Positions 14,370-32,414 of a stretch of 64,000 nucleotides of DNA are shown piece by piece. The position numbers and the translations under genes are program-made. How positions within the stretch are numbered: the stretch's first letter is position 1; each line of letters opens with the position of its first letter. This DNA comes from a virus (taxonomy: Duplodnaviria; Heunggongvirae; Uroviricota; Caudoviricetes). The notes beneath the pieces were generated by a model. That model saw only the letters and a program-made list of their open reading frames with translations, was not told where the DNA came from and did no database searches. The stretch lies in IMG/VR virus record IMGVR_UViG_2920292642_000002, positions 19,431 to 83,430 of that record; one strand, written 5' to 3'.

Positions 14370-14450
14370 TCGGCAAGGAAATCTATACGGACTGCGATCG
14401 CGACAATCAATAGACTCTGTCGCGTTTTAACAAGGGATAAGTGGGGCAAC

Positions 14451-16606: not shown

Positions 16607-16607
16607 G

Positions 16608-21290: not shown

Positions 21291-22304
21291 TTACAGTCCC
21301 AACATGTCCTGAATGATGCTGAAGTGATCTTCGAAGAACTCACCGCGCTCCAGTGAGTCGACCGGGTGCCAGTTGGCACTCTCGGCGTCGTCCGCGCCGT
21401 TCACCCGCCACAACGGCTTGGCGTCCGGCAGACGGAACAGGAAGGCGTGCGTTACCGTCCGACCGCGAGTTGACCGATAGGGATTGTCGAAGACCTTGCT
21501 CTCGGTGATGTACGTGTCTAGCCGGCCGGGAGGGATGCGTCCGCGCCCGTCCGCGATCTCCGTCTCCTCGCGCAGTTCACGCACGGCCGCTGTACGGATG
21601 CGCTCGTACTGGTCGATGAAGCCGCCCGGCAGTGCGAGCAGACCCTTGCCGGGATAGTCTCCGCGCCGGATCAGGAGGATGTGGCCGGACTGGACGACGA
21701 CGGCGTCGACCGTGATGAAGGTCGGCGGGAAGGGTGCCGCCTCCCACGAGCGCCGGTAGCGCGAGATCGACTCGTGCTCGTAGTGGAGATTCCAATAGAA
21801 GTCGGAACTTACCCAGTCGTTCAGATATTGCCCGACTTCAGCAGGCATGGCCGTCGCGTCGATCTTCTTGAGGAAGGAGAAATAGGCGTTACGAATCGTG
21901 GTCGCGTCGAGCGTTCTGCGCGTCGACTGGATGTCGAGCGAGCCCCAGTCCGGGAAGAGCTTCAGATAGAAACTCGACTGATCCTTCGAGTAGCCGACCA
22001 GAACGATGTCGTCGCCATAGGCGTTTTCGTTCACGCTGTTGCGGACCTCAGCGATCCAGCGCTCATCGCTGGGATAGTCGCAGATCGGCAGGAACTCGAC
22101 CCGGCCGATCTCCTCGTCGGACAGGGTGCGGCTGATCATCTGCACCCGTTCATGGAACAGCCACGGGTTGCGCGTCGACCGCGCCGCGCCGGCCGAGCCG
22201 ACGAGGATCAGAAGTTTGTCGAGTTGGGAAAGAGATTCGCGGACGATCTGGAGATGGCCGCAGTGAAAGGGCTGGAAACGCCCTATAAAGACGCCAGTGC
22301 GCAT
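21291..22304 (-). CDS. natV: bifunctional NMN adenylyltransferase / Nudix ADP-ribose pyrophosphatase (NatV/NadM-Nudix)
   Basis: N-terminal nucleotidyltransferase GRFQPFHCGHL (HxGH) plus C-terminal Nudix box GGFIDQYERIRTAAVRELREETE. Confidence 0.85.
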   Translation of the reverse strand: MRTGVFIGRFQPFHCGHLQIVRESLSQLDKLLILVGSAGAARSTRNPWLFHERVQMISRTLSDEEIGRVEFLPICDYPSDERWIAEVRNSVNENAYGDDIVLVGYSKDQSSFYLKLFPDWGSLDIQSTRRTLDATTIRNAYFSFLKKIDATAMPAEVGQYLNDWVSSDFYWNLHYEHESISRYRRSWEAAPFPPTFITVDAVVVQSGHILLIRRGDYPGKGLLALPGGFIDQYERIRTAAVRELREETEIADGRGRIPPGRLDTYITESKVFDNPYRSTRGRTVTHAFLFRLPDAKPLWRVNGADDAESANWHPVDSLERGEFFEDHFSIIQDMLGL

Positions 22305-22392: not shown

Positions 22393-22932
22393 TTACATCG
22401 CCAGAACAGGACTGAGTTCGGCAAGCCGCTGCAACGGCATCCGCTGGTCGGCGATCATGCGGTAGAGCGGCATCTGTTCGCGACCACCTTGGAAGAAGGT
22501 CATCATGAAGAAATCGAACTCGTCGATGTGCTTGCCGGCCCAGATCGGATCGCGCGTCAGAAGGTCATGCTGGTGGTGGCAGTAGCGATCGGCGAGCTTG
22601 ACCAGCGACGCCCGTGGATCGGACGCAGCGCGCGGCAGTGAGATGGCCTTGGCTTCGCTCCGGGACAATCCCTCGGGATCGGTCACGAGGTCGACGATCC
22701 GCGCAATCTCGTTGCCGTAGGCGTAGCGGATGTCCTCGCTCTCGACATCGGTATCCTCGACGATGTCGTGCAGCCACGCCGCCGCGATGGTCTCCTGATC
22801 GGTCGTGAACAGTGCCACCATCCCGGCGACGGCCGTCAGGTGGTGCGTGTAGGGAAGATTGCCGTAGGTCTGGTTGCGGTGATGCTCGACCGCGAGCGCA
22901 CGCGCCGTATCGGCGACAGTTCGGTTTTTCAT
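22393..22932 (-). CDS. HD-domain (p)ppGpp hydrolase-like protein (small alarmone hydrolase-like)
   Basis: HHRNQTYGNLPYTHHLTAVAGMVA ... AAWLHDIVEDT resembles RelA/SpoT HD hydrolase domain; start at MKNRTV after GGAGAC RBS. Confidence 0.65.
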   Translation of the reverse strand: MKNRTVADTARALAVEHHRNQTYGNLPYTHHLTAVAGMVALFTTDQETIAAAWLHDIVEDTDVESEDIRYAYGNEIARIVDLVTDPEGLSRSEAKAISLPRAASDPRASLVKLADRYCHHQHDLLTRDPIWAGKHIDEFDFFMMTFFQGGREQMPLYRMIADQRMPLQRLAELSPVLAM

Positions 22933-23042
22933 ACAGGTCTCCTTGAGCCGGTCAGAGGTAATCCTTGACCTCCCGGACTGTCCAGAGTATCTGTCCAAGA
23001 CTGCGCGACTGTCAAGCGTATCTTTTCACTCTTATGGTTAAC

Positions 23043-23117
23043 GACGTGGTGGCGGAGTGGCTTACGCGCCGGATTGCAACCCCGGTCACGCCGGTTCAAT
23101 TCCGGCTCACGTCTCCA
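23043..23117 (+). tRNA. tRNA-Cys(GCA), CCA encoded, U73 discriminator
   Basis: manual cloverleaf: acceptor GACGTGG/TCACGTC, T-arm GCCGG-TTCAATT-CCGGC, anticodon loop TTGCAAC; A31-C39 mismatch. Confidence 0.6.
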
Positions 23118-23131
23118 ACTCCCCTGAGCAA

Positions 23132-23356
23132 ATGCGGCATTTCAAGATCATCACTCAAGACGACTGCAAATACTGTGACCGCGCGAAGGCGCTGATTCGG
23201 GAGATGGGTGATACCTTCTCCGAGATCAATCTTTCGACATTCACTGAGGAGGCGCGGGGCGCGTTCAAGAAACGCTACGGGACCGTTCCGCAGGTCTTCC
23301 TCGAAACGGTGCGCATTGGCGGCTCCGACGATCTTGCGGCATGGTACGCTACTTAG
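23132..23356 (+). CDS. glutaredoxin-like protein (NrdH/Grx family, 74 aa)
   Basis: CKYC active site and GTVPQVF...GG motif. Confidence 0.7.
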   Translation: MRHFKIITQDDCKYCDRAKALIREMGDTFSEINLSTFTEEARGAFKKRYGTVPQVFLETVRIGGSDDLAAWYAT

Positions 23357-23816
23357 CCGACTCCTTGACGTGGTAGGCGTCGCCTTCCTTGTCCTTGACC
23401 AGTATTCCCCTCTTGGCCATCTCGGACAGAGCGGCCCATACCGTCTGCTTGCGGATACCATCACCGAGCGCTGCGATGATCTCGGCGCTCGTCATCGGAC
23501 GTTCCTGACCAATTAATATGGTTGTGATTTGCTGCTTTATCGGCGGTTTTTTCTCGATAACGGCCGACATGAAATCCTTTGCGGCGCGCTTCGTAGATGG
23601 TGGGTTTACCGGGCCATTCGATTTTCGAGTCTTGGGAGCGGCGTGCGATTCCGTTTGTCGTTGCTGGTCGGCTTTCTTGAAGGAGTGGTAGGCCCCGGCC
23701 TCGATCGGCTCTCGGAGAGATTCGATCGTGTTTCTGACATCCTCCAATTTGTTTATTCTGATTTTTAATGCTTCGATCTCGCGGTCGATCTGGGCGCACA
23801 TCGCATCGATGTCCAT
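23349..23816 (-). CDS. hypothetical protein with C-terminal winged-helix DNA-binding domain
   Basis: TSAEIIAALGDGIRKQTVWAALSEMAKRGILV resembles wHTH regulators. Confidence 0.45.
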   Translation of the reverse strand: MDIDAMCAQIDREIEALKIRINKLEDVRNTIESLREPIEAGAYHSFKKADQQRQTESHAAPKTRKSNGPVNPPSTKRAAKDFMSAVIEKKPPIKQQITTILIGQERPMTSAEIIAALGDGIRKQTVWAALSEMAKRGILVKDKEGDAYHVKESAK

Positions 23817-24099
23817 TAACGACTCCCTGTCCCCTTGGTTTGTTGTTGCTGCGGTTCTCCGCAGACGATTACCTCACCCAAGGTCAGACCTTATCTGAAA
23901 TATGGCATCATGGGTATAACTCGTGCGTTAAGGAGGCTGGAAATTAACGGACGAAATCATAAGTCATTATGTCGCATAATTCGTCGGCTTTTAAGCCGGG
24001 TGGGTGCACCATCTAGGGTGCTTTCTGAAGGCGGGCAAGCGACTCATACGTGTACGCATGAAAAAGCCCCGACCGCTATCGGCCGGGGCTCTGTACTCA

Positions 24100-24417
24100 T
24101 CACATTTTGTCGAAATCGACAGCGTCATTGACCGGGATTAGAAGCTCTTCGAGATCGAGCATCACGTCCTCGTACTTCTTGATGAAGGCCTTGGTCACCT
24201 GCACGTCCGGGAGCGCGACGCTGTTGGGCTGGGCGTAGAGGGTGCCGAGCCCATCGACGTAAGCATCCTTGTTGACCTGCCTGACGCGGAGGGTCGTGTC
24301 ACCCTTCGGGCGCTCATGCTTGAACCAGTTCCAGAATGCCTTGTCGACATCCTCGGCCTTGCCCCACGAATTTCCTCCGACCACGATAAAGTGGTTGAGC
24401 GGCTGTTGCTCACTCAT
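24100..24417 (-). CDS. hypothetical protein (105 aa)
   Basis: ORF track; followed by hairpin plus U-tract at 24059-24092. Confidence 0.5.
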   Translation of the reverse strand: MSEQQPLNHFIVVGGNSWGKAEDVDKAFWNWFKHERPKGDTTLRVRQVNKDAYVDGLGTLYAQPNSVALPDVQVTKAFIKKYEDVMLDLEELLIPVNDAVDFDKM

Positions 24418-25106
24418 GTTGACACTCCTATAAGGTTTTCAAAGAACATTCCGCCTCATTGGCAGCATCTATATCATAGCATATCTGGTTGATATTGCAA
24501 CAACTTTGTTCTTTGTAAGAATACTTGCGAGACAAGACTAGGTTGAGTGCAGACTAACTTTGAATACTACTGCAAACACGAAAAAGGCCCGGTGGGAGAC
24601 GGGCCTTGATGGTTAGGGGTTGAGTGCAGAGACTAACATCGCAGGAATGATGACGATCTGGAGGAGAGCGGCTGGTCTTGATCCGCAGACCTCTCCCGAG
24701 GTCCCAACCGTTTTCGAGACGGTGCCGGCGCGCCTGTCCGGTTCACTCTCCATAACTGGTCCGAGGGGAGAGAATTTGCACTCCCACAGTCTAAGACGGC
24801 CGCTTTACAGGCGGTTAGGCTCACTCGTGCCCAGCCCTCGGATGCGCGATCGCGTATAAAGCGAGTTTATCCGGAATCGCGTATAAATGGCGGAAGGCGG
24901 TGGCCCTGATCCACTAACCCGTGCGGGTCTCATCCGTTTAGCAAACGGAGCCGGCCCGAGCCGGTTCACCTTCCAGAAATGAAATGGAGGAGACGGAGAG
25001 CAGGCCAGTATCGCTCGCGCTCGATTACGGGCGCGCCGGCCTGTCTCCTAGCCCTCTTACTCGCGCCATCCTATCGAGCCAACAGGACCGCTTCGGCAGG
25101 GCATCT

Positions 25107-25192
25107 TGGCGGAGAGCGGAGAACTCGAATCCCACACCTTGCGGTGCGCTTCGCCTTCCAAGCGGGCCGGGAACCTATCCCGTTCACTCTCC
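25107..25192 (-). tRNA. tRNA-Ser(GGA), class II
   Basis: manual fold: acceptor GGAGAGU/GCUCUCC, long variable arm, loop UUGGAAG, T-loop TTCGAGT, CCA encoded. Confidence 0.5.
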
Positions 25193-25196
25193 ATAC

Positions 25197-25272
25197 TGGT
25201 CCCAGCGGCAGGATTCGAACCTGCGACCTCTCCCTTATGAGGGGAAAGCACTACCGCCGTGCTCCACTGGGT
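25197..25272 (-). tRNA. tRNA-Met(CAT) (elongator or Ile-lysidine type)
   Basis: manual fold: T-arm GCAGG-TTCGAAT-CCTGC, anticodon loop CTCATAA, CCA encoded. Confidence 0.6.
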
Positions 25273-25748
25273 TAATCGCGTCGGACCACCTGAATGGGGC
25301 CGTCCGACAGAATGTCGTGCTTGATGCAGACCTCGACGGCGCGCTCGGCCGTCGCGCCCATCTCCAGAGCACCCACGGCGATCATGTCGCCGGAGCCGAA
25401 GACGTGCCATTCGCTCTCGACCTCGTAAGGTGGATCGTCCCCCTCGAAGCGGATGCAGACGCCGTCCGGCTTGATCACGAAGCCGGTGCAGTTGTCGTCC
25501 TTCCCAGTCGGCTCGATCCGAGGACTGCTGTACTCCAGATTCTGGAGGAACTTGGGGAAGTTGTCCGAGCGGCACCAGCGGATGAACTTGGCGACGTAGG
25601 GCGCTTCGCCGGTCCCACCGACGAGGTAGGCTTCACCATCGACATCGACGCGAGCGATCTTCTCGGCGTGGCCGAGCACGTTCCAGTTGCGTCGGATCAA
25701 CTGAGAATCCGACGCAAGGACACCGTCACGATAGACGAGGACAGTCAT
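25272..25748 (-). CDS. HslV-like N-terminal-nucleophile peptidase (proteasome beta-subunit family)
   Basis: MTVLVYRDG N-terminus (Thr2) and GSGDMIAVGALEMGATAERAVEV similar to HslV. Confidence 0.5.
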   Translation of the reverse strand: MTVLVYRDGVLASDSQLIRRNWNVLGHAEKIARVDVDGEAYLVGGTGEAPYVAKFIRWCRSDNFPKFLQNLEYSSPRIEPTGKDDNCTGFVIKPDGVCIRFEGDDPPYEVESEWHVFGSGDMIAVGALEMGATAERAVEVCIKHDILSDGPIQVVRRD

Positions 25749-26131
25749 CAGTAGCGCGCCGCGCCGAGCGAACGGGAAGGCGCAGCGCCCAGACCGGTCT
25801 CGGTGGACTTCTTGCCCTTCTTCTTGTTGTCGTCGAAGAACTTGTCGAGCGACTGGACCTGCACCGCCTTGACGATCAGGCGAACGATCGCGACCGGGTA
25901 GGTATTGGCCGAGGCCGAAACATCTCCGAAAGTGGCGATCGACGACTCGGTGTCGCCATTGCCGATCTTCCCGCCGACATCCCCCTTTCCGAGGATCGAA
26001 TTGACGGCCGCAGCCGCCTTGGTCACGTCGGTGAGGTCGGTGCCGAGGAGATTGTTCGCTGCTGCGAGCGCCGCGTCCTCGTCGTTGAGCTTGCTGATTT
26101 CGACCAGCTTCTCGAAGTCGTTTCTGTCCAT
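25748..26131 (-). CDS. hypothetical protein (127 aa)
   Basis: ORF track. Confidence 0.45.
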   Translation of the reverse strand: MDRNDFEKLVEISKLNDEDAALAAANNLLGTDLTDVTKAAAAVNSILGKGDVGGKIGNGDTESSIATFGDVSASANTYPVAIVRLIVKAVQVQSLDKFFDDNKKKGKKSTETGLGAAPSRSLGAARY

Positions 26132-26203
26132 GCCCGGAACTCCCTTGTGGTTAGGCTTGCGGGATTCCGTTTAGGGGTTCTTTACGGCAGTGTCAAGAAA
26201 AAC

Positions 26204-26277
26204 TGGATGCCCTGCCACGACTCGAACGTGGACTCATCGCTTCAAAGGCGCGCGTCCTACCTTTAGACGACAGGGCA
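26204..26277 (-). tRNA. tRNA-Gln(TTG)-like; weak anticodon stem
   Basis: manual fold: acceptor TGCCCTG/CAGGGCA, T-arm CCACG-TTCGAGT-CGTGG, loop CTTTGAA, CCA encoded. Confidence 0.5.
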
Positions 26278-26287
26278 GGAGTGAGGG

Positions 26288-26360
26288 TGGCTCGGCAGGT
26301 ACGGGTCGAACGTACATCGGCTGATTCAGAGTCAGCGTGCTTACCATTAGCGACTGCCGA
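26288..26360 (-). tRNA. tRNA-Gln(CTG)
   Basis: manual fold: anticodon arm GCTGA-CTCTGAA-TCAGC, T-arm GTACG-TTCGACC-CGTAC, CCA encoded. Confidence 0.6.
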
Positions 26361-26366
26361 ATAAAC

Positions 26367-26443
26367 TGGTGCCAAGGGGAAGTTTCGAGCTTCCGACCTC
26401 CGGGGTTTCAATCCGGCGCTCTAACCATCTGAGCTACCAAGGC
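26367..26443 (-). tRNA. tRNA-Phe(GAA)-like; U-U mismatches in acceptor stem
   Basis: manual fold: D-arm GCTC-AGATGGTTA-GAGC, loop TTGAAAC, T-loop CTCGAAA, CCA encoded. Confidence 0.5.
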
Positions 26444-26451
26444 ATAAAAAT

Positions 26452-26537
26452 TGGCTCGCGAGGGAGGGATCGAACCTCCGCCCCCTTCGGGGTCCACCGG
26501 TTAACAGCCGGGAACATTACCACTCTGCCACTCGCAA
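26452..26537 (-). tRNA. class II (long variable arm) tRNA with anticodon loop CTGTTAA (reads GTT/Asn-like; one base from Tyr GTA)
   Basis: manual fold: variable arm CCCCGAAGGGGG, T-arm GGAGG-TTCGATC-CCTCC, acceptor starts UU. Confidence 0.45.
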
Positions 26538-26546
26538 TCATAACAC

Positions 26547-26634
26547 TGGAGAACCGGGTGGGGATCGAACCCACGGTGGGCTTTCGCCATCGGATTAAAA
26601 GTCCGCGCCCTTCGACCAACTTGGATACCGGTTC
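26547..26634 (-). tRNA. class II scaffold tRNA with Lys anticodon TTT
   Basis: manual fold 88 nt: acceptor GAACCGG/CCGGTTC, variable arm GGCGAAAGCC, loop CTTTTAA, T-arm GTGGG-TTCGATC-CCCAC. Confidence 0.45.
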
Positions 26635-26640
26635 ACGATC

Positions 26641-26715
26641 TGGAGCCCTGCTCGGGGACCGCACCCGCTTCTACCGCTTACAAGGCGGCTGCTTCACTCT
26701 CAAAGCTTTCAGGGC
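26641..26715 (-). tRNA. tRNA-Thr(TGT)-like; non-canonical T-loop TGCGGTC
   Basis: manual fold: D-arm GCTT-TGAGAGTG-AAGC, anticodon arm GCCGC-CTTGTAA-GCGGT. Confidence 0.5.
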
Positions 26716-26721
26716 ATTGTC

Positions 26722-26796
26722 TGGAGCCTCGGTCGGGAACTGCACCCGCTTCTGACCGGTACGAACGGCCTGCTTCACTCGCAAAGCTTTCGAGGC
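26722..26796 (-). tRNA. tRNA-Thr(CGT)-like; non-canonical T-loop TGCAGTT
   Basis: paralog of previous unit; anticodon arm GGCCG-TTCGTAC-CGGTC. Confidence 0.5.
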
Positions 26797-26807
26797 ATAA
26801 TAAATAA

Positions 26808-26895
26808 TGGAGTACCCGGCTGGATTCGAACCAGCGGTGTGCTTTCGCAGGCGGATTAAGAGTCCGACGCCATCGACCAACTCGGCCACGGGTAC
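26808..26895 (-). tRNA. class II scaffold tRNA with Lys anticodon CTT
   Basis: manual fold 88 nt: D-arm GCC-GAGTTGGTCGAT-GGC (Ser-like), loop CTCTTAA, variable arm TGCGAAAGCA, T-arm GCTGG-TTCGAAT-CCAGC. Confidence 0.45.
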
Positions 26896-26901
26896 ATTAG
26901 C

Positions 26902-26975
26902 TGGAGCCGACACGTGGAATTGAACCACGGCTCCGTCCTTACCACGGACGGCGTCTACCACTGACATATATCGGC
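26902..26975 (-). tRNA. tRNA-Thr(GGT)
   Basis: manual fold: anticodon arm CGTCC-GTGGTAA-GGACG, T-arm CGTGG-TTCAATT-CCACG. Confidence 0.6.
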
Positions 26976-27060
26976 AAAATTTAACTGTCTCGATTAATCG
27001 AGCCGCAACTTGTCCTTGCTACAACCGCTGTGCTGATCACAACACCACGAGGCAACAGAC

Positions 27061-27243
27061 ATGATGAAACTGCTGAAGCGCTTCCAGAGCGATGAGTCTG
27101 GAGCAACTGCAATCGAATACGGCCTGATCGCTGCTTTGATCGCGCTGGCGATCGTCGTCGGCGCTGGCGCACTCGGCGAGAACCTGAACGCCAAGTTTCA
27201 GGCAATCAGTGACCAGTTGGCGGGTACGCCGGAGGGAGAATAG
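27061..27243 (+). CDS. flp: Flp/Fap-family type IVb (Tad) pilin precursor (60 aa)
   Basis: prepilin signature KRFQSDESGATAIEYGLIAALIALAIVV matching the Flp motif; own terminator follows. Confidence 0.75.
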   Translation: MMKLLKRFQSDESGATAIEYGLIAALIALAIVVGAGALGENLNAKFQAISDQLAGTPEGE

Positions 27244-27282
27244 AGTTCCTTGTCCGCGTTACAGCAACGACAAGCAACTGAC

Positions 27283-27310
27283 CGCCCTCCGGGGCGGTTT
27301 TTTTTTTTTG
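27283..27310 (+). terminator. rho-independent terminator of flp-like gene
   Basis: CCGCCCTCCGGGGCGG hairpin followed by T11. Confidence 0.65.
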
Positions 27311-27386
27311 GTGGAGACGGTGAGAATCGAACTCACAACAGCCTGCTTGCAAGGCGGGCTCGCTAACCCTTAGAACATGCGTCCCC
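27309..27386 (-). tRNA. tRNA-like, probably Ala(TGC); D-arm unclear
   Basis: T-arm GTGAG-TTCGATT-CTCAC, acceptor GGGGACG/CGTCTCC, loop CTTGCAA. Confidence 0.4.
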
Positions 27387-27563
27387 AAACTCTGAAAAAT
27401 GATCCGGCAGGCGGGCGAGTGTCCCCGCGTCATCTCCCCGGCTAGACAGCACCGAGGTTTTGCAGCCACGCCTTGTCTAAGGGCGGGTCGCTATGTCCGG
27501 AAGGTCACGTTATTCCACGCCAGACCATCCGCTGCTCGTCGCGTTCTGAGCTACTGCCGAAAC

Positions 27564-27640
27564 TGGACCTTCCGGCTGGGATCGAACCAGCGCCCTCCAG
27601 CTTCGGAGGCCGGCGCTCTTGTCCGCTGAGCTACGGAAGG
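27564..27640 (-). tRNA. tRNA-Arg(CCG)
   Basis: manual fold: anticodon arm CCGGC-CTCCGAA-GCTGG? with T-arm GCTGG-TTCGATC-CCAGC, acceptor CCTTCCG/CGGAAGG. Confidence 0.55.
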
Positions 27641-27643
27641 AAT

Positions 27644-27718
27644 TGGAGCGGGTAGCGAGGGTCGAACTCGCGCCTCTAGGCTGGCAACCTAGTGCTCTAC
27701 CAACTGAGCTATACCTGC
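27644..27718 (-). tRNA. tRNA-Gly(GCC)
   Basis: manual fold: anticodon arm CTAGG-TTGCCAG-CCTAG, D-arm GCTC-AGTTGGTA-GAGC, T-arm GCGAG-TTCGACC-CTCGC. Confidence 0.6.
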
Positions 27719-27905
27719 AATTTCGCGGGGTGGGGCTCAGGTCATCACTCCTGTCCCCTGAGCGGGTGATGATCCGGTTTGGGGCCGGTCCCTCTCCCCC
27801 TGCTCGGAGAGCCCGAAGGCTCAATCCTTGGAAACTCTCGACAGGGGTCACCTGTCGCTAGGCAAGGCTCTGAAGGTTGACGAGACCTTCGCCCTTGCGT
27901 GCCTA

Positions 27906-27983
27906 TGGCCTCCCCGGAGAGATTCGAACTCCCGACACGGGAGGTAGAAGCTCCCTGCTCTAGGTCCACTGAGCTACGGAGAG
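27906..27983 (-). tRNA. tRNA-Arg(TCT)
   Basis: manual fold: anticodon arm GGGAG-CTTCTAC-CTCCC, T-arm GGGAG-TTCGAAT-CTCTC. Confidence 0.55.
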
Positions 27984-28431
27984 GAGATCGCTTTTGGAGG
28001 GAGGCCAGCAGGCCATCGTTAGATGGAGTGTCAACACAACGGAGTCGCAAGACTTGCCGAAGCTGCCGACCTCCCGCCAAAGGCGATCTAGGTGCCGAAA
28101 GCGTGAGACTACCGCTTTCGATGACGACCTTCCCGCATTATCCGACGCCTTGCGAGCGTGGTTCTCGGGATGTCCACGCCGAGCATATTGCTATGTCTCG
28201 ACGTATTCGTCAATGCCGCCTTTTTTAGCGCGTGGCGTTTCGCGCGTCGCTGCGTGCTATTCGGCGTCTCGTCGACCGTGAGCCTTGCGGGCTCTTCGCG
28301 GCTGCTACACCGCTACGATCTCTTCCTCACCGACACCCTCCAGCTTGCGACCTTCAGGTGACCCAGTTCCCCGCAGGGCTGGGCATTAGGCATCTTTCAC
28401 ACGCAACCGGGACAGGCTTTGCGTTTTGTTA

Positions 28432-28506
28432 TCGTGAGGCCGGATTTGAACCGGCGACCGATGGCTTAGAGGGCCATTGCGCTACCAACTGCGCTACTCG
28501 CAACCC
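28432..28506 (-). tRNA. tRNA-like (anticodon loop CCTCTAA, TCT with C33; no encoded CCA) - possible pseudo-tRNA
   Basis: T-arm GCCGG-TTCAAAT-CCGGC, D-arm GCGC-AGTTGGTA-GCGC, acceptor with mismatch. Confidence 0.35.
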
Positions 28507-29061
28507 ACCGAGACGTGCTGCCCCAGTTGCTCCAAGCCCTTTTGGGACCCAGAATACAACACGCCTGCTGCTACCTTTCGCGCTGCTAACGCTACTCGAT
28601 CATGCTTCGAGATCACGGGTCATTTCAGCCCGAGACCTTGCCACATTGCCAGACGCCCTCGGCCGCTAAGCCTCGAACCTTCTGACTACCCTTCATCATC
28701 GGCCATCGATCAGTTTGCGTGCCGGGCGCGCTTTGCGAGCGCTTGAGGGCCACCATCGGCTACCCTCTTATCCAACCTTGCGGGTCGGACCCTGCCTGAT
28801 CTTCGGGCCTAGCCCACCTTCCGGTAAGCCGGGTGTCCCCGTGACTGGGCTTGCATGGCTGGACGCGGTTACCCGCGTGGAGGTTTATGGGAAACCCTCC
28901 TTTGGGCCGGTTGCCCGGCTTACCCTGACGACGCCATGCCGCCAAACTCTGCTCCGGTTCTCGTCGCCGATCGCCGTCGCCTTGTTGTCCTCTAACTACT
29001 TCACGACTGCGCCGCCCGTCAAGCATTAATTTGCAATCGTGTTAAGATTTTTTCGACATAC

Positions 29062-29141
29062 TGGAGCGCACGGCAGGGGTCGAACCTGCATCTTCCTCCA
29101 TTACCTTACTCTCGGTTCGTAGCCGAGGGGGTTACGTGCGC
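29062..29141 (-). tRNA. tRNA-Arg(ACG)-like with aberrant architecture (no recognisable D-arm, 21-nt insertion after anticodon arm)
   Basis: perfect acceptor GCGCACG/CGTGCGC, anticodon arm CTCGG-CTACGAA-CCGAG identical to E. coli tRNA-Arg ACG, T-arm GCAGG-TTCGACC-CCTGC. Confidence 0.4.
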
Positions 29142-29146
29142 ATAAA

Positions 29147-29222
29147 TGGCGAGCCATAAGGGAGTCGAACCCTCCTTCTCCGATCGACAGTCGGAGCCCT
29201 TCACCACGACGGGAAATGGCCC
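29147..29222 (-). tRNA. tRNA-Asp(GTC)
   Basis: manual fold: anticodon arm TCCGA-CTGTCGA-TCGGA, T-arm GAGGG-TTCGACT-CCCTT, CCA encoded. Confidence 0.6.
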
Positions 29223-29230
29223 ATTGAAAA

Positions 29231-29305
29231 TGGAACTGGGAGCCCGGCTCGAACGGGCGATTCCGGGGACACAACCCGGCCGGTTACCTCTACCGTCATC
29301 CCAGC
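29231..29305 (-). tRNA. tRNA-His(GTG)
   Basis: manual fold: anticodon arm CCGGG-TTGTGTC-CCCGG, T-arm GCCCG-TTCGAGC-CGGGC. Confidence 0.6.
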
Positions 29306-29313
29306 ATAGTGTT

Positions 29314-29388
29314 TGGAGCGGACTGCCGGGATCGAACCGGCCTTGGGAGATTGGAAGCCTCTTAACTCACCGAGAGCAAGCCCGCATG
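29314..29388 (-). tRNA. tRNA-like, probably Gly(TCC); short D-arm
   Basis: T-arm GCCGG-TTCGATC-CCGGC, acceptor GCGGGCT/AGTCCGC, loop CTTCCAA. Confidence 0.4.
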
Positions 29389-29400
29389 TCTGGTACGCCT

Positions 29401-29482
29401 AGCAGGACTTGAACCTGCACGCCGAAGCACGGGCATCTCAGTCCCGCGTGTCTACCTTTCCACCATAGGCGCATGTTTGTTT
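29401..29482 (-). tRNA. tRNA-Leu(GAG), class II
   Basis: loop CTGAGAT, variable hairpin TGCTTCGGCGT, T-arm GCAGG-TTCAAGT-CCTGC. Confidence 0.5.
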
Positions 29483-29621
29483 GGCGGGGCCGAACACCTG
29501 TCGACCCGATCCGGACGCGATCCCGGACCCTGCACGATTACCCTCTCGCCGATCGCGCGGCCGTTCATGACCGGCCTTTGTTCTCGGGCGATTTTGATGA
29601 AGAGAGTCGCCGTCGCCAATC

Positions 29622-29704
29622 TGGTGTCCGAGGGGAGACTTGAACTCCCACGCCGAAGCTCTGCGGTCTGAGCGCAGTGCGTCTTCCGATTCCGCCACTC
29701 GGAC
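29622..29704 (-). tRNA. tRNA-Leu(CAG), class II
   Basis: anticodon arm CTGCG-CTCAGAC-CGCAG, variable AGCTTCGGCGT, T-arm GGGAG-TTCAAGT-CTCCC. Confidence 0.6.
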
Positions 29705-29710
29705 ATGTCT

Positions 29711-29820
29711 GGTGGAGTGTGACCGGATTTTTACCGGAGCCCATAGGGACAGGTGTACGGCCTGTTCGGGATAGGCAGTCCCGCTCGCAGACCTCTAGCG
29801 GTCCGCTTAATCACAACTCC
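29711..29820 (-). ncRNA. unresolved 110-nt tRNA-like RNA (acceptor-like ends GGAGTTGTG...CACACTCCACCA, multiple internal hairpins; no canonical T-loop)
   Basis: encoded CCA tail and terminal helix but atypical internal structure. Confidence 0.3.
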
Positions 29821-29825
29821 ATAGA

Positions 29826-29904
29826 TGGTGCCTCGCCCCGGATTCGAACCGGGAGGATGTCGCCGGGTTTGAGCCGACCGCGTCTTCCGTTCCGCCAGCA
29901 AGGC
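29826..29904 (-). tRNA. tRNA-Leu(CAA)
   Basis: anticodon arm GTCGG-CTCAAAC-CCGGC, T-arm CCCGG-TTCGAAT-CCGGG. Confidence 0.55.
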
Positions 29905-29960
29905 ATTGATACGTTTAGAGGTATAGAGCGCGCGGCTCTATACGTCTAAAGGTATCAGAT

Positions 29961-30035
29961 CGTGGCAAAGGCTGAGAGATTCGAACTCCCGCCGCAGGGT
30001 TTTGGAGACCCGCATGCTACCGCTACAACAAGCCG
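29961..30035 (-). tRNA. tRNA-Trp(CCA)-like; two mismatches in acceptor stem
   Basis: anticodon loop CTCCAAA as in E. coli tRNA-Trp, T-arm GGGAG-TTCGAAT-CTCTC. Confidence 0.45.
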
Positions 30036-30556
30036 ATCCACGAGCCCCGGCCGGACGGATTCCCGGCCGGGGTTTCTGATGTCATCATTCCTACGATGTC
30101 AAAGAACGGGACCCTAACTAAGGTCCAAATGCAAGAAGGCCCCGGAGATTTCTCGCCGGGGCCTTCTGATCGATCCGAGGATGGTACTGTTAGAATACAG
30201 TACCTCCGTCGCCAGAAGACCCCATGATACCGAACAGATTGGTATCAAGCAGACGCAAGGAGGCGCGGCGCGACTGCGCCGTCCCACTCGTCATTTGATG
30301 CCAATACTGCTGTTTCACAGCGGTCTTCCTTGTTCACGTCCCTCAGGAGAGCGGATATCCGCTGGTCGACTCCGAGGGCTCATTCCGAAATTCTGTTGCG
30401 GTCCCCATACGGTGAACCTGAGAGCGGCGTCAGCCAAGCTCAGCGCGAATGATGAACAATCCTGAGACGTTTGTCAAGCAAGAAAATCATCCGTCTCAAG
30501 AAAAAGTTTACATCGGAAAAGGTTGACGATCGAGTCACGAGGGCTAGATGTCGGGC

Positions 30557-30676
30557 TGTTACGAAGTCGGAGCATGGTGCTCTGATCATTTTTGAGAGGG
30601 AGCAATCTCAAGAGTGAAAGTGGACTCTTCCCAGACTTGACCATGAGTCTAGCCCGCTTCGGCGGGCTTCTTTTTT
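30557..30676 (+). ncRNA. candidate small RNA (promoter-like TTGACG-N17-TAGATG upstream, strong terminator at 3' end)
   Basis: no credible ORF; hairpin GCCCGCTTCGGCGGGC followed by TTCTTTTTT at 30653-30676. Confidence 0.25.
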
Positions 30677-30679
30677 GGA

Positions 30680-30754
30680 TGGCAGCCCATGACGGTTTCG
30701 ATCCGTCTTCTCCTGATTGAGAATCAGGTGTCCTATCCACTAGACGAATGGGCC
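30680..30754 (-). tRNA. tRNA-Glu(CTC); T-loop ATCGAAA (A54)
   Basis: anticodon arm CCTGA-TTCTCAA-TCAGG, D-arm GTC-TAGTGGATAG-GAC, CCA encoded. Confidence 0.55.
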
Positions 30755-30758
30755 AAAT

Positions 30759-30837
30759 TGGTCGGGCGGACGGGGCTCGAACCCGCATCGCAACGCTTGA
30801 AAGGCGCGCCACCTAGTCCAGTTTAGAAGGACCGCCC
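30759..30837 (-). tRNA. tRNA-Glu(TTC)-like; weak anticodon stem
   Basis: perfect acceptor CGGGCGG/CCGCCCG, loop CTTTCAA, T-arm GCGGG-TTCGAGC-CCCGT. Confidence 0.5.
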
Positions 30838-30914
30838 GTGGTCCTCGACCGTGGTTTCGATCCACGTGCCTCCGGCGTGTCGTGCCGGCGCTCTCCCGAG
30901 TGAGCTAGTCGAGG
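30838..30914 (-). tRNA. tRNA-Val(GAC)-like with C33 (loop ACGACAC); abuts previous tRNA
   Basis: anticodon stem CCGGC/GCCGG, T-arm CGTGG-ATCGAAA-CCACG, acceptor CCTCGAC/GTCGAGG. Confidence 0.45.
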
Positions 30915-30915
30915 T

Positions 30916-30991
30916 TGGTTGACCCTGCCGGTTTCGATCCGGCTGCCTCCTGTGTGTAAGACAGGCGCTCTCCCGAGTGAGCTAAGGGTCT
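30916..30991 (-). tRNA. tRNA-Val(TAC); 1-72 mismatch
   Basis: anticodon arm CCTGT-CTTACAC-ACAGG, T-arm GCCGG-ATCGAAA-CCGGC. Confidence 0.55.
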
Positions 30992-30995
30992 GAAC

Positions 30996-31069
30996 TGGTT
31001 GTCCCACTGAGAATCGAACTCAGATCAACCGCTTATCAAGCGGACGCTCTACCGTTGAGCTATGGGACG
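30996..31069 (-). tRNA. tRNA-Ile(GAT); C1-A72 mismatch
   Basis: loop TTGATAA, D-arm GCTC-AACGGTA-GAGC, T-arm CTGAG-TTCGATT-CTCAG. Confidence 0.55.
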
Positions 31070-31110
31070 ACACCGGGCCGAGGCTTGCGCCCCGACCCGA
31101 TGGGGCTTGT

Positions 31111-31185
31111 TGGTCTGGGTGCGGAGTTCCGCCCTCCGGCATCCGGCTTCCAAGGCCGGTACTCTTCTGCACGAGCTTCACCCAG
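31111..31185 (-). tRNA. tRNA-Pro(TGG)-like with non-canonical D- and T-loops
   Basis: perfect acceptor CTGGGTG/CACCCAG, anticodon arm CCGGC-CTTGGAA-GCCGG, T-loop GGCGGAA. Confidence 0.4.
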
Positions 31186-31195
31186 TTATCAGGCA

Positions 31196-31240
31196 AAAAA
31201 GAAGGCCCGGTTTTCACCGGGCCTTTGAAGTTGCCAACAG
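31196..31240. terminator. bidirectional hairpin terminator
   Basis: GGCCCGGTTTTCACCGGGCC flanked by AAAAAAGAA and TTTGAAG. Confidence 0.5.
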
Positions 31241-31352
31241 AACTCTTGATTGGTTCAGTCGCGCAATACCTTCCGGCCCGATTCCTCGGTCGGTTCAATG
31301 ATCTCCACGACGGGGACGATCAGGTTGCGCACTGGTGTTCTCCTAACGAAAT

Positions 31353-31431
31353 TGGTTGCGGCGGCTGGATTTGAACCAGCGATCTTCTGGTTATGAACCA
31401 AACGAGATTGACCGGGCTTCTCTACACCGCA
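31353..31431 (-). tRNA. tRNA-Met(CAT) (second CAU tRNA; Met/Ile2 unresolved)
   Basis: loop TTCATAA, D-arm GAGA-AGCCCGGTCAA-TCTC, T-arm GCTGG-TTCAAAT-CCAGC, CCA encoded. Confidence 0.5.
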
Positions 31432-31562: not shown

Positions 31563-32414
31563 TCAGTTCGGAGAGAGATTGACGAACGGCAGGGCTCCGC
31601 CCGGCACCATGGTGGCCGGAAGCTGGCCGTTCCACGTCTCCACCTTCACGAGATCGATGACAGTCGGATTGTCGCGCAGCGCCTTGCCGCGTGCCGCGAT
31701 CGCCGAGGCGTCGGCGTCGCCCTTCAGTCGGATCGCATCGGCATCGGCCTGCGCCTTCTTACGAATCGCGTCGGCATCAGCCTGCGCCTTGGCGACCGTA
31801 ATCTCGTTGCGTTCGGCCTCCTGCTTCTTCTCCTGCTTGAGGCGTTCGACCTCATTCTCGGCGAGCATGCGCTTCTCGATCGACTTCTCGTAAGCGTCGG
31901 AGAAGTTGACATCCTCGATCTGAACCGACTCGATCAGGATGGGGCCGGCGATGTTCTCGGTCATGGCCTTGGCGACTTCGACGCCGAGACGTTCGCGCTC
32001 GGTGATGGCGGTCGCGGCCGTGAACGTGCCCATGACCTCCTTCAGTTCCTTCTTCACACGTCGGTCGACGAGTCGCGTCAGGACGCCCTCCTCGCCGCCA
32101 TATTCGGAATAAATCTGCGCGATCTTGTCAGCCGCGAGCTTGTAGGTGACCGACACCGTCATCGTCGCCGCCTGTCGGTCGGCCGAATAGAAGGGCTCGT
32201 CCTGATAAAGCCGCGAGTTGGTCCGGATGGAAATCGACTTGACGCTGTCGACCAGCGGGGTGATGAAGTTCATACCCGGCTCGGCGATCGACGAGTACGC
32301 ACCGTTGCGCAGGACCACGCCGCGCTCGCCCTCATCGATCGTCTCGATACTGAGGAGCGCGCCGAACATAACGACCACTGCGATCGTCCCAATTGCTGCA
32401 AAAATTCCCTTCAT
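31563..32414 (-). CDS. SPFH/band-7 (prohibitin/HflK-like) membrane protein with C-terminal coiled-coil
   Basis: N-terminal TM, SPFH core (GVVLRNGAYSSIAEPGMNFITPLVDSV...), repeated KKAQADADAIR coiled coil. Confidence 0.8.
   Translation of the reverse strand: MKGIFAAIGTIAVVVMFGALLSIETIDEGERGVVLRNGAYSSIAEPGMNFITPLVDSVKSISIRTNSRLYQDEPFYSADRQAATMTVSVTYKLAADKIAQIYSEYGGEEGVLTRLVDRRVKKELKEVMGTFTAATAITERERLGVEVAKAMTENIAGPILIESVQIEDVNFSDAYEKSIEKRMLAENEVERLKQEKKQEAERNEITVAKAQADADAIRKKAQADADAIRLKGDADASAIAARGKALRDNPTVIDLVKVETWNGQLPATMVPGGALPFVNLSPN

Follow-up and report, generated by a model that had tools for sequence, protein, structure and literature searches.

By textbook rule, a long variable arm is reserved for the tRNAs of Leu, Ser, bacterial Tyr, and Sec. 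The locus studied here, in a 64-kb stretch of phage DNA that we call the window, raises the question of what tRNAs with such an arm and with Lys and Asn anticodons could be. A sequence-only reading had reported three of them, and ARAGORN recovered all three in the window at exactly the same positions (88, 88, and 86 nt), on the minus strand, which that reading had left unstated.

26895–26808, minus strand: tRNA-Lys(CUU), 88 nt, class II shape, called by ARAGORN, Rfam tRNA 54.3 bits; anticodon 26858–26860; variable hairpin UGC-GAAA-GCA at 26840–26849; G1-C72, U2-A71, A3-U70; U73 at 26811; CCA encoded
26634–26547, minus strand: tRNA-Lys(UUU), 88 nt, class II shape, called by ARAGORN, Rfam 47.5 bits; anticodon 26597–26599; variable hairpin GGC-GAAA-GCC at 26579–26588; G1-C72, A2-U71, A3-U70; U73; CCA encoded
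26537–26452, minus strand: tRNA-Asn(GUU), 86 nt, second class II scaffold, called by ARAGORN, Rfam 46.2 bits; anticodon 26503–26505; variable region 26480–26495 with a CCCC/GGGG hairpin at 26481–26492; U1-A72, U2-G71; G73; CCA encoded

All three are cloverleaves in which the acceptor stem has 7 bp and the T stem 5 bp, the T-loop reads TTCGA, and the CCA end is encoded. Each scores above the Rfam RF00005 (tRNA) gathering score of 29, with E-values of 1e-9 to 2e-7. The anticodon loops in the ARAGORN folds, CUCUUAA for Lys(CUU), CUUUUAA for Lys(UUU), and CUGUUAA for Asn(GUU), are those first read by eye. The architecture is that of class II, in which a variable region of at least 10 nt forms a stem-loop and is accompanied by a 3-bp D stem. 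In all three the D stem consists of three Watson-Crick pairs and a loop of 9–12 nt, with a fourth pair possible in Lys(CUU) through a G13-U22 wobble. The variable region of both Lys tRNAs is 15 nt long (1 nt, a 3-bp stem capped by GAAA, and the 4 nt CACC), and the Asn tRNA has 16 nt there, with a 4-bp CCCC/GGGG stem. The earlier claim that the array lacks a class I Lys or Asn tRNA holds across the 64-kb window, where ARAGORN found no Lys or Asn tRNA besides these three; two extra weak tRNA-like matches in the array have the anticodons UGU and UUC. The same reading had named a software assignment to Ser, Tyr, or Leu anticodons as a refutation; ARAGORN returned Lys, Lys, and Asn, which favours the observation.

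Judged from their identity marks, the three tRNAs are most likely genuine, functional Lys and Asn decoders on a class II body, and we would put the probability of this reading at roughly 0.7. All features that translation needs are intact in the three: a 7/5 acceptor/T helix, G18G19, TTCGA, U33, A37, N73, and CCA. Together, CUU and UUU for Lys and GUU for Asn would serve every codon of the AAN box, and Lys and Asn identity marks would, on this reading, sit on a class II core of 3-bp D stem and variable stem-loop. Since the anticodon and base 73 are what LysRS and AsnRS chiefly recognize, a class II body would be no bar to cognate charging, and we regard cognate charging with normal AAN decoding as probable. 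Marks that would attract SerRS, TyrRS, or LeuRS are absent or weakened: G2-C71 and A73 occur in none of the three, and the variable stem of the two Lys tRNAs has only 3 bp, with four unpaired bases after it. It had been objected that class II tRNAs are not normally charged through the anticodon. This is beside the point, as LysRS and AsnRS use the anticodon and N73 whatever the body (PMC9976931), and bacterial TyrRS also uses U35.

In more specific terms, Asn identity consists of the anticodon and G73 and can be transplanted into tRNA-Lys, bacterial Lys identity consists of all three bases of a YUU anticodon together with A73, and both LysRS and AsnRS rely on anticodon and N73 (PMC9976931). 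The Asn tRNA of the window bears the Asn marks (GUU, G73, and U1-A72). Its Lys tRNAs bear a YUU anticodon and U73, not the A73 of E. coli; U73 is also found in 7 of 28 class I-shaped phage Lys tRNAs. Across the phages sampled, class II Asn tRNAs have G73 in 20 of 22 cases and U1-A72 in 17 of 22, compared with 11/12 and 8/12 for class I Asn tRNAs. The discriminator of class II Lys tRNAs is U73 in 11, A73 in 11, and G73 in none, and that of class I Lys tRNAs is A in 20, U in 7, and C in 1. The difference between Asn and Lys in G73 is strong (Fisher test, 2.6e-10), with the qualification that the sampled sequences are related by descent and the counts are not independent events.

By sequence, the three window tRNAs have neither Tyr nor Leu identity. 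Bacterial Tyr identity depends critically on A73 and U35, with a contribution from G1-C72 (PMC9976931); the window tRNAs have U35, but their discriminators are U73, U73, and G73, whereas 15 of 17 phage Tyr tRNAs have A73. In other phages, half of the class II Lys tRNAs do combine A73 with U35, the two main bacterial Tyr determinants, and by sequence these A73 forms would pass as Tyr tRNAs. Bacterial Leu identity involves A73 and a Leu-type D loop with its tertiary bases. None of the three window tRNAs has A73, and their D arm, GCCGAGUUGGUCGAUGGC, does not resemble the GGUGGAAUUGGUAGACAC type found in the phage Leu tRNAs.

The design is not peculiar to this phage. Its closest relative, Mesorhizobium phage Cp1R7A-A1, has an 88-nt tRNA-Lys 89.5% identical to the Lys(CUU) of the window, and Lys/Asn tRNAs of 85–91 nt occur in Cp1R7A-A1, RcXuper, Xanthomonas phages X1 and XacN1, and Ruegeria phage V10, as well as in phiKZ, Psa21, phiCbK, and the T5-like Proteus phage Stubb. 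A sequence-pattern search found the long-arm Lys/Asn design in dozens of IMG/VR contigs. Homologues of the window Asn scaffold are present in Cp1R7A-A1, in Sphingobium phage Lacusarx, in two Erythrobacter phages, and in 11 IMG/VR contigs, with a GUU anticodon in all 11. The carriers are very distant from one another, with alpha- and gamma-proteobacterial hosts and including both siphoviruses and jumbo myoviruses. Among 185,579 bacterial genomes there were 3 matches to the design, each inside a dense tRNA array; the design is nearly restricted to phage arrays. Most arrays have the class II gene in place of, and not in addition to, a class I gene with that anticodon. When the anticodon was left free in the IMG/VR pattern for the Lys scaffold, only UAA (Leu), GUA (Tyr), GUU, CUU, and UUU were recovered; UAA and GUA mark normal class II tRNAs, which leaves GUU, CUU, and UUU as the only non-class II anticodons on this scaffold. 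Phage T5 itself was considered as a carrier and rejected, as its tRNAs for Asn and Lys have a length of 78 nt; among the T5 group, only the T5-like phages of Proteus have the class II form. No prior description of long-arm Lys/Asn tRNAs was found in the searchable full-text literature, a body of text to which most subscription journals do not belong.

How such molecules arose is suggested by their mosaic make-up. The tRNA-Lys(UUU) matches class I-shaped phage Lys tRNAs at 93% identity in the acceptor stem and 100% in the anticodon arm with the anticodon masked, and in a segment comparison its D and variable arms are nearest to Tyr and Ser tRNAs, which bears out the suspicion of chimeric decoders voiced in the sequence-only reading. 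With class I tRNA-Lys and tRNA-Asn, the window tRNAs share the anticodon loop and stem sequence, the type of acceptor stem, N73, and the 1:72 pair, and their CGGACUGUUAAUCCG matches the anticodon arm of E. coli tRNA-Asn. They differ in having a stem-loop of 15–16 nt and a 3-bp D stem in place of a 4–5-nt variable loop and a 4-bp D stem. With bacterial tRNA-Tyr they share the 3-bp D stem, a Ser/Tyr-type D loop, and an arm of 1 nt, 3–4 bp, and about 3 unpaired bases, and the anticodon loops are one base apart, GUA versus GUU. The A73 of tRNA-Tyr is G73 in the Asn forms, which have U1-A72, and U73 in the window Lys forms. Because MAFFT could not align variable arms of unequal length, hairpins were compared sequence by sequence. 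Class II Lys tRNAs have an arm of 3 bp with 3–4 unpaired 3′ bases, a Tyr-like geometry, whereas in the 29 phage Ser tRNAs analysed the arm has 4–8 bp and 0–1 unpaired 3′ bases. This geometry of the Lys scaffold agrees with the earlier observation that a single base separates CUGUUAA from the Tyr loop. The Lys scaffold looks like a tRNA-Tyr-type body that would have shifted first to a GUU anticodon and later to YUU. A second scaffold, separate from this one, is that of the window Asn tRNA. A derivation of this second scaffold from tRNA-Ser(GCU), suggested by likeness of the D arm, was set aside, as the segment comparison is too weak.

It is less clear why the long arm has been kept. One possibility, to which we give clearly less than even odds, is that the tRNAs are cognate decoders whose arm has no function: a Tyr- or Ser-type gene of an array would have changed its anticodon and been captured by AsnRS or LysRS, and the body would have been carried along and spread with the arrays. 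One-step anticodon paths do exist (GUA to GUU and GCU to GUU), the variable-arm geometry is Tyr-like, and in most arrays the class II gene merely replaces the class I gene. The same phage loci, moreover, contain 13 Leu tRNAs without a long arm and class II-shaped Trp, Gln, His, and Cys tRNAs; therefore, arm length seems to drift where the synthetase tolerates it. Against a functionless arm speak the retention of the scaffold in very distant phages with a conserved, covarying, GNRA-capped 3-bp arm, the arrival of at least two separate scaffolds at the same Asn design, and the occurrence of both shapes of one isoacceptor in some phages with few tRNA genes, such as phiKZ.

Another possibility, our leading idea but a tentative one, is that the long arm is kept to make the tRNAs poor substrates, or decoys, for host nucleases that cut tRNAs. 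It leads because PARIS targets Lys, Asn, and Thr tRNAs and because the phage has RtcB, an enzyme able to reseal cut tRNAs. Two further features of the window bear on it:

26796–26641, minus strand: a tandem pair of Thr-like tRNAs of non-canonical type, flanked by the Lys genes, from Rfam and folding (CGU anticodon, 26796–26720; UGU anticodon, 26716–26641)
14361–15680, plus strand: phage-encoded RtcB RNA ligase, Pfam PF01139 at 409 bits, matching solved RtcB structures

The AriB nuclease of PARIS cuts E. coli tRNA-Lys(UUU), Thr(UGU), Asn(GUU), and Thr(CGU) (PMC12409363); the odd tRNAs of the window (Lys, Asn, and Thr-like) are for the same isoacceptors, and RtcB is in the same genome. Beyond the anticodon stem, AriB apparently needs contacts with the D loop and other parts of the tRNA body, as indicated by an AlphaFold 3 model and a U16C mutant (PMC12409363). 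Infection hit by PrrC is rescued by a phage tRNA-Lys (PMC11555353). Against the idea, variable arms can themselves be nuclease targets, as tRNA-Tyr is for Septu (PMC13096335).

The closest known parallel comprises the T5 tRNA-Lys(UUU), Thr(UGU), and Asn(GUU) that neutralize AriB and the PrrC-rescuing tRNA-Lys, which are the same isoacceptors and likewise lie in large arrays (PMC12409363, PMC11555353); these and the window tRNAs alike would presumably sustain AAN and ACN decoding after the host tRNAs are cut. The T5 tRNAs, however, are class I, 78 nt long, and owe their escape to single-base differences at positions 39, 41, and 16 (PMC12409363), whereas the window tRNAs keep the UAAUC motif in the anticodon stem, have a core that is class II throughout, and have a resistance that is only putative. 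The Lys scaffold retains the U36-A-A-U-C motif beside the AriB cleavage site, which T5 mutates; therefore, any protection from AriB would rest on body shape alone.

A broader version, which we find rather doubtful, is that the long arm is an evolved counter-defence device, one strategy that would also account for the Leu tRNAs without an arm, the unusual Thr-like tRNAs, and the class II shape of Trp, Gln, and His tRNAs. A new shape would be tolerated only in tRNAs whose own synthetase recognizes the anticodon and base 73, and the altered body would be invisible or inhibitory to nucleases that recognize the body (PARIS AriB, PrrC/RloC-like enzymes, and others) while staying fully translatable. 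If so, “shape disguise” would be a general principle of tRNAs in the arms race between phage and host, and the textbook rule that class II comprises only Leu, Ser, Tyr, and Sec tRNAs would be broken. As a side observation, 2 of the 4 tRNA genes in the 6-kb stretch of phiKZ examined are for Asn(GUU), one of each shape, a pair that was counted toward the link to defence.

Turning to the tRNAs as decoders, an improbable alternative to Lys and Asn decoding is that the long arm leads to charging by SerRS (or TyrRS), so that Ser or Tyr would be put at Lys and Asn codons. There are precedents. Nematode nev-tRNAs and other eukaryotic noncanonical V-arm tRNAs likewise combine class II bodies with non-Leu/Ser/Tyr anticodons; the nev-tRNAs are descended from tRNA-Leu, have retained its determinants, and misread codons, and those with Gly and Ile anticodons are charged with Leu only (PMC3333845). 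Bacterial allo-tRNAs, some of them in phages, likewise combine non-Ser anticodons with a long variable arm and with G73 or U73, and the arm and the discriminator have been taken as Ser identity (PMC5389517). The window discriminators (U73, U73, and G73) would fit this, as would A3-U70, a typical Ser feature that 17 of 22 class II Lys tRNAs share; U73 is also found in 9 of 30 phage Ser tRNAs.

The comparison nevertheless breaks down in several places. Unlike in the nev-tRNAs, the acceptor-end marks of the phage tRNAs match the amino acid of the anticodon, and the synthetases concerned read the anticodon. Allo-tRNAs have 8/4 or 9/3 acceptor/T helices, cover 35 codons, and have a predicted Ser identity (PMC5389517), whereas the phage tRNAs serve the AAN box only, all three window tRNAs are 7/5, and beyond normal class II tRNAs the Lys scaffold bears only GUU, CUU, and UUU. 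Bacterial Ser identity comprises conserved G1-C72 and G2-C71 and a long variable stem with 0–1 unpaired 3′ bases, with help from G73 (PMC9976931). Of the phage Ser tRNAs from these loci, 29 of 30 have G2-C71, as do 7 of 22 class II Lys tRNAs and 0 of 3 window tRNAs; in the latter, the 2:71 pair is U-A, A-U, or U-G. The Lys arms of the window, 3 bp with 4 unpaired bases, resemble none of the 29 Ser tRNAs analysed; the Asn tRNA departs from Ser geometry only in part, with G73 and a single unpaired 3′ base beside its 4-bp variable stem, and may be recognized to some extent by SerRS.

The mis-incorporation at Lys and Asn codons that the sequence-only reading had envisaged thus lacks support, since N73 and the first pair switch with the anticodon just as Asn and Lys identity predict and as in ordinary Asn and Lys tRNAs, and the class II gene substitutes for class I in most arrays. 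The three are also the sole Lys/Asn tRNAs in arrays that otherwise resemble full decoding sets, and AAG makes up 4% of codons, with the conserved catalytic Lys residues of the phage RtcB on AAG codons. In the RtcB motifs GNHF, HHN, RKGA, and YKD, the conserved catalytic Asn and Lys residues stand on AAC and AAG codons. A recoding of AAN codons was rejected for the same reason, as standard translation yields the 409-bit Pfam match with conserved Lys and Asn on AAG and AAC.

A use solely outside translation appears very unlikely, whether the molecules would act as decoys for, or would inhibit, the tRNA nucleases of the host or further proteins that bind tRNA, or would have a part in processing or regulating the array. 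Non-productive complexes of viral tRNAs with immune effectors have been suggested (PMC12409363), and the nuclease recognition motif is kept in the conserved anticodon stem-loop; but every feature needed for translation is intact, the identity marks are conserved, and these arrays have no other Lys or Asn tRNA. That the tRNAs are decayed pseudogenes or artefacts of software or hand folding, the latter raised in the sequence-only reading, is already refuted in our judgement by the comparative data, in which ARAGORN and the Rfam model, independent tRNA detectors, concur, every helix is backed by covariation, and the genes are conserved across many phages, even though minimum-free-energy folding of the single sequences misses the full cloverleaf (z-scores of −1.2 to +0.5), such folding being commonly poor for tRNAs and hence uninformative.

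The covariation comes from an alignment of 28 related sequences, in which 95.3% of cells pair, changes on both sides occur at 18 of 23 pairs, and all five helices are represented; as the patterns used for sampling kept the anticodon stem and some of the variable stem constant, invariance there is by construction. At the variable-arm pair 49:58, which the search pattern left unfixed, we observed UA in 10, GC in 8, AU in 7, and CG in 2. An RNAalifold run on the 11 Asn sequences of the second scaffold was set aside, having mis-paired their invariant D and anticodon regions.

Taken as Lys and Asn decoders, these tRNAs would join a class II core to Lys/Asn identity, conserved in the well-studied phiKZ and phiCbK and in many uncultured phages. 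They would offer a natural test of the tolerance of LysRS, AsnRS, EF-Tu, and the ribosome for a class II body, of use in tRNA engineering and in building orthogonal pairs, and a record of tRNA genes changing amino acid identity, with anticodon and N73 switching together. For phage-borne Lys, Asn, and Thr tRNAs they suggest the hypothesis of escape from tRNA-cutting immunity through body shape, for which phiKZ on Pseudomonas and phiCbK on Caulobacter are tractable systems. Annotation pipelines that name tRNAs by anticodon only conceal this long-arm class.

The Thr-like units are unusual in other respects. Their D loop is without GG, their T loop is UGCAGUU or UGCGGUC, and both have U73 and CCA. 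ARAGORN called neither, the UGU unit scores 29 bits with the Rfam tRNA model, and both form a cloverleaf at minimum free energy. The structurally odd tRNAs of the window, the two Lys, the Asn, and the two Thr-like units, all adjoin one another.

The minus-strand tRNA array of the window, at 23043-31431, holds at least 26 tRNA genes (ARAGORN), including three in which a class II body, with its long variable arm, carries a Lys or Asn anticodon:

26895-26808, minus strand, tRNA-Lys(CUU), 88 nt, Rfam tRNA model 54.3 bits
26634-26547, minus strand, tRNA-Lys(UUU), 88 nt, Rfam tRNA model 47.5 bits
26537-26452, minus strand, tRNA-Asn(GUU), 86 nt, Rfam tRNA model 46.2 bits

The gathering score of the Rfam general tRNA model is 29, and ARAGORN also calls all three. 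In the ARAGORN cloverleaves each has an acceptor stem of 7 bp, a T stem of 5 bp, a T-loop with TTCGA, an encoded CCA and a D stem of three Watson-Crick pairs with a long loop; the 7-nt anticodon loops are CUCUUAA, CUUUUAA and CUGUUAA, respectively. The variable region of both Lys tRNAs is 15 nt (one unpaired nucleotide, a 3-bp stem capped by GAAA and four unpaired nucleotides, CACC), and that of the Asn tRNA is 16 nt, with stem CCCC/GGGG. ARAGORN and Rfam bear out in every particular the sequence-only reading, which had placed class II-shaped Lys and Asn tRNAs at 26452-26895 and omitted the strand alone. Across the 64-kb window no further Lys or Asn tRNA was detected, and two additional weak tRNA-like matches have anticodons UGU and UUC. 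Besides Leu tRNAs, these three are the only long-arm tRNAs in the array; Ser, Tyr and Pro tRNAs were not detected there, and the check for further irregular tRNAs covered the array apart from several gaps of 150-600 nt.

The window is related to Mesorhizobium phage Cp1R7A-A1, with which its first 24 kb share 78% identity over 41% of their length. The run recurs there in unchanged order: Thr, Lys(CUU) of 88 nt, Thr, Thr, Lys(UUU) of 88 nt, Asn(GUU) of 88 nt, Phe and Gln. When single tRNAs were compared by BLAST with 50,697 phage records and the matches inspected, long Lys tRNAs (87-91 nt) were found in Rhodobacter phage RcXuper, Ruegeria phage V10, Xanthomonas phages X1 and XacN1 and Caulobacter phage phiCbK, and long Asn(GUU) tRNAs (82-88 nt) in Pseudomonas phages phiKZ and Psa21, the T5-like Proteus phage Stubb, Xanthomonas phage X1, Sphingobium phage Lacusarx and Erythrobacter phage XM05. 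Of the four tRNA genes in the part of phiKZ that was inspected, two are Asn(GUU), one long-armed and one ordinary. The Lys and Asn tRNAs of T5 itself are all ordinary, at 78 nt, with no long form. Two IMG/VR pattern scans added 49 contigs; a pattern scan of 185,579 bacterial and archaeal species, one genome each, gave just three matches, each within a dense phage-like tRNA array. Because so many phages and contigs carry the long forms and so few of these species do, the feature is recurrent and largely phage-specific.

These tRNAs are built on two scaffolds. The two Lys genes of the window belong to scaffold 1, as do the Asn genes from phiKZ-like and T5-like phages. In this scaffold the D arm is of Ser/Tyr type (GCC-GAGUUGGUCGAU-GGC), the anticodon arm reads CGGACU-NUU-AAUCCG, and the variable arm consists of 1 nt, 3 bp, a GNRA loop (GAAA, GCAA, GUAA or GGAA) and 3-4 nt (CAYC). 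Scaffold 2 comprises the window Asn gene and its homologues in Sphingobium, Erythrobacter and Mesorhizobium phages. Its D arm is GGCAGAGUGGUAAUG and its anticodon arm is CCCGGCUGUUAACCGG; its variable arm consists of 3 nt, 2-5 bp and 1 nt, with a stem sequence that varies by phage (CCAUC/GAUGG, CCAC/GUGG, CUGC/GCAG, CACC/GGUG). In an alignment of 28 scaffold 1 sequences, 95.3% of cells pair, versus 74% when shuffled and 34-48% when partners are slid, and 18 of 23 pairs show changes on both sides. Because the search pattern fixed the anticodon stem and two inner pairs of the variable stem, these are invariant by construction; the variable-arm pair left free is UA in 10 sequences, GC in 8, AU in 7 and CG in 2. 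An anticodon-free IMG/VR pattern for the scaffold 1 anticodon and variable arms returned only UAA (Leu) and GUA (Tyr), both normal class II tRNAs, together with GUU, CUU and UUU.

With a probability of roughly three in four, the sequence evidence indicates that the window tRNAs are charged cognately, with Lys and Asn. Charging of class II tRNAs by their body rather than their anticodon has real precedent: nematode nev-tRNAs, which are class II, are charged with Leu (PMC3333845), and long-armed allo-tRNAs whose base 73 is G or U are interpreted as Ser acceptors (PMC5389517). For the phage tRNAs, sequence evidence of five kinds points away from this possibility. First, acceptor-end marks track the anticodon. 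Established work (PMC9976931) places Asn identity in the anticodon and G73, a set that can be transferred to tRNA-Lys, and Lys identity in the anticodon and base 73, the discriminator. Among 22 class II Asn tRNAs, 20 have G73 and 17 have U1-A72 (11 and 8, respectively, of 12 class-I-shaped Asn tRNAs from the same loci), whereas base 73 of class II Lys tRNAs is U in 11, A in 11 and G in none (class I Lys: A 20, U 7, C 1). The G73 contrast between Asn and Lys (Fisher P = 2.6e-10) recurs in several unrelated acceptor-stem lineages, and the Asn and Lys members of scaffold 1 differ exactly by the published identity elements. Second, Ser marks are absent. Of the Ser tRNAs from these loci, 29 of 30 have the G2-C71 pair; 7 of 22 class II Lys tRNAs have it, and all three window genes lack it. 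Ser variable stems have 4-8 bp and 0-1 unpaired 3' nucleotides, versus 3 bp and 3-4 in class II Lys arms, a geometry that is Tyr-like. Base 73 is A in 15 of 17 Tyr tRNAs and 51 of 53 Leu tRNAs, but in no window gene of the three. Third, segment comparison shows the window Lys(UUU) gene to be a mosaic: its acceptor stem is 93% and its anticodon arm, with the anticodon masked, 100% identical to class-I-shaped phage Lys tRNAs. Its D arm and variable arm, when class II Lys and Asn tRNAs are set aside, are most similar to Tyr, Ser and other long-arm tRNAs. Fourth, in most arrays the class II gene takes the place of the class I gene for a given anticodon, as when class I Lys(CUU) accompanies class II Lys(UUU), or the reverse. 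Finally, the window phage uses AAN codons with their standard meaning, as seen in the following gene:

14361-15680, plus strand, RtcB RNA ligase, Pfam 409 bits by standard-table translation

Its conserved GNHF, HHN, RKGA and YKD residues, with codons AAC and AAG, match solved RtcB structures, and ten long ORFs use AAG and AAC at 40 and 25 per 1000 codons.

Several features limit confidence in cognate charging. The window Lys genes have U73, not A73, a base that 9 of 30 phage Ser tRNAs share with them; A3-U70 is common among class II Lys tRNAs; the window Asn tRNA combines G73 with a 4-bp arm and one unpaired 3' base; and some class II Lys tRNAs of other phages have A73 and U35, the main Tyr determinants. 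By membership tests the three genes classify as tRNAs and as class II in architecture, and the Asn gene, on sequence, as having Asn identity; the Lys genes fit Lys identity by anticodon, base 73 (U) being the one ambiguous point. The nearest structural parallels, nev-tRNAs and allo-tRNAs, also join class II bodies to foreign anticodons, and synthetases that read the body charge the former (shown) and the latter (predicted). The three window tRNAs fall in neither group; allo-tRNAs have 8/4 or 9/3 helices and scattered anticodons, whereas scaffold 1 anticodons are few.

The arm geometry, the D arm and the single base separating GUA from GUU suggest that scaffold 1 may have begun as a tRNA-Tyr-type gene that came to serve first Asn (A36U, A73G, U1-A72) and then Lys (position 34, base 73). 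Alternatively, recombination may have given a Lys or Asn tRNA its class II core; both paths are equally consistent with the mosaic pattern. Scaffold 2 would have reached that design separately.

Why the long arm is kept is a different matter, and disguise from tRNA-cutting host nucleases is a tentative answer, somewhat doubtful as it stands. The PARIS effector AriB cuts Escherichia coli tRNA-Lys(UUU), Thr(UGU), Asn(GUU) and Thr(CGU) between positions 40 and 41, requires the context U36-A-A-U-C and apparently also depends on the D-loop (AlphaFold 3 model and U16C mutant) and other body contacts; T5 evades it by encoding Lys, Thr and Asn tRNAs with point changes (PMC12409363). Infection blocked by PrrC is likewise rescued by phage tRNA-Lys (PMC11555353). 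The T5-type anti-defence tRNAs are the nearest functional parallel, but they are class I, escape by point mutation and have been tested experimentally. The structurally deviant tRNAs of the window are exactly the AriB target set and lie adjacent: the two Lys, the Asn and, in tandem between the two Lys genes, two Thr-like tRNAs that ARAGORN missed:

26720-26796, minus strand, Thr-like tRNA, anticodon CGU, cloverleaf fold, no Rfam tRNA match
26641-26716, minus strand, Thr-like tRNA, anticodon UGU, cloverleaf fold, Rfam 29 bits

Both have a D stem of 5 bp, a D loop of 6 nt without GG, a T stem of 4 bp, a T loop without the usual TTC (UGCAGUU or UGCGGUC), and U73 followed by CCA. RtcB can reseal cleaved tRNAs, and the window RtcB, which Cp1R7A-A1 shares as an annotated tRNA splicing ligase, suggests repair of cleaved tRNAs. 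Two further adjoining genes look like an NAD salvage pair of the type that phages use against NAD-depleting defences, a known counter-defence theme:

19870-21288, minus strand, nicotinamide phosphoribosyltransferase
21291-22304, minus strand, cytidylyltransferase-like plus Nudix protein

A separate Nudix ORF lies at 16599-17069 (plus strand). The variation of tRNA bodies across phage arrays is compatible with selection for disguise from body-reading nucleases and equally so with neutral drift. Against disguise, the UAAUC motif persists in scaffold 1, and a variable arm can itself be the target, as for Septu and tRNA-Tyr (PMC13096335).

The genes themselves are not new, because GenBank records already list them as tRNA-Lys and tRNA-Asn. 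In the literature searched we found no description of their class II nature, spread, identity-mark pattern or link to nuclease targets, all of which appear undescribed within it.

Changes of body shape extend to other isotypes at the phage loci and contigs compared (L numbers; L001 is from Cp1R7A-A1):

window 29826-29904, minus strand, Leu(CAA), variable region shortened to 8 nt
L001 3197-3273 and 3278-3353, Leu tRNAs of 76-77 nt with a 5-nt loop
L022 4387-4473 (minus), L042 8187-8273 (minus), L055 876-964 (minus), L032 8298-8378 (plus), L050 678-766 (minus) and L015 5230-5313 (minus), class-II-shaped tRNAs for Trp(CCA), Gln(UUG), His(GUG) and Cys(GCA)

Leu tRNAs lacking the long arm, 13 of them with a 5-nt loop among the loci compared and all with a Leu-type D arm, are the converse of the long-arm Lys and Asn tRNAs. 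The three class-II-shaped Trp genes have G73 and A1-U72, matching class I Trp at both sites. Since class-II-shaped Trp, Gln, His and Cys tRNAs exist, the phenomenon is wider than Lys and Asn; with the arm-short Leu tRNAs added, the shape of tRNA bodies in phage arrays therefore appears to change wherever the synthetase permits.

The array also contains a GOLLD RNA at 28100-28566 (minus strand; Rfam RF02032, 205 bits versus gathering 150, E 3e-57), which encloses tRNA-Arg(UCU) at 28430-28504. A weak Glu(UUC)-like unit at 30762-30838 (minus strand; Rfam 22-28 bits, loop CUUUCAA, oversized D region), uncalled by ARAGORN, adjoins tRNA-Glu(CUC). The opposite strand within the array has an ORF for a Flp/Fap pilin of 60 aa at 27061-27243 (plus; Pfam 68.5 bits). 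After it, at about 27283-27310, come a GC hairpin and a T10 run. Elsewhere, the 937-aa large terminase subunit at 46566-49379 (plus) appears to be interrupted by an intein, with Hint and intein-splicing matches at about residues 135-483 that are below Pfam gathering scores. The array is flanked by an HD_4 domain protein at 22393-22998 (minus) and an SPFH/Band 7 protein at 31563-32414 (minus), and the XacN1 and Cp1R7A-A1 arrays also adjoin Band 7 or HflK/C-like genes.
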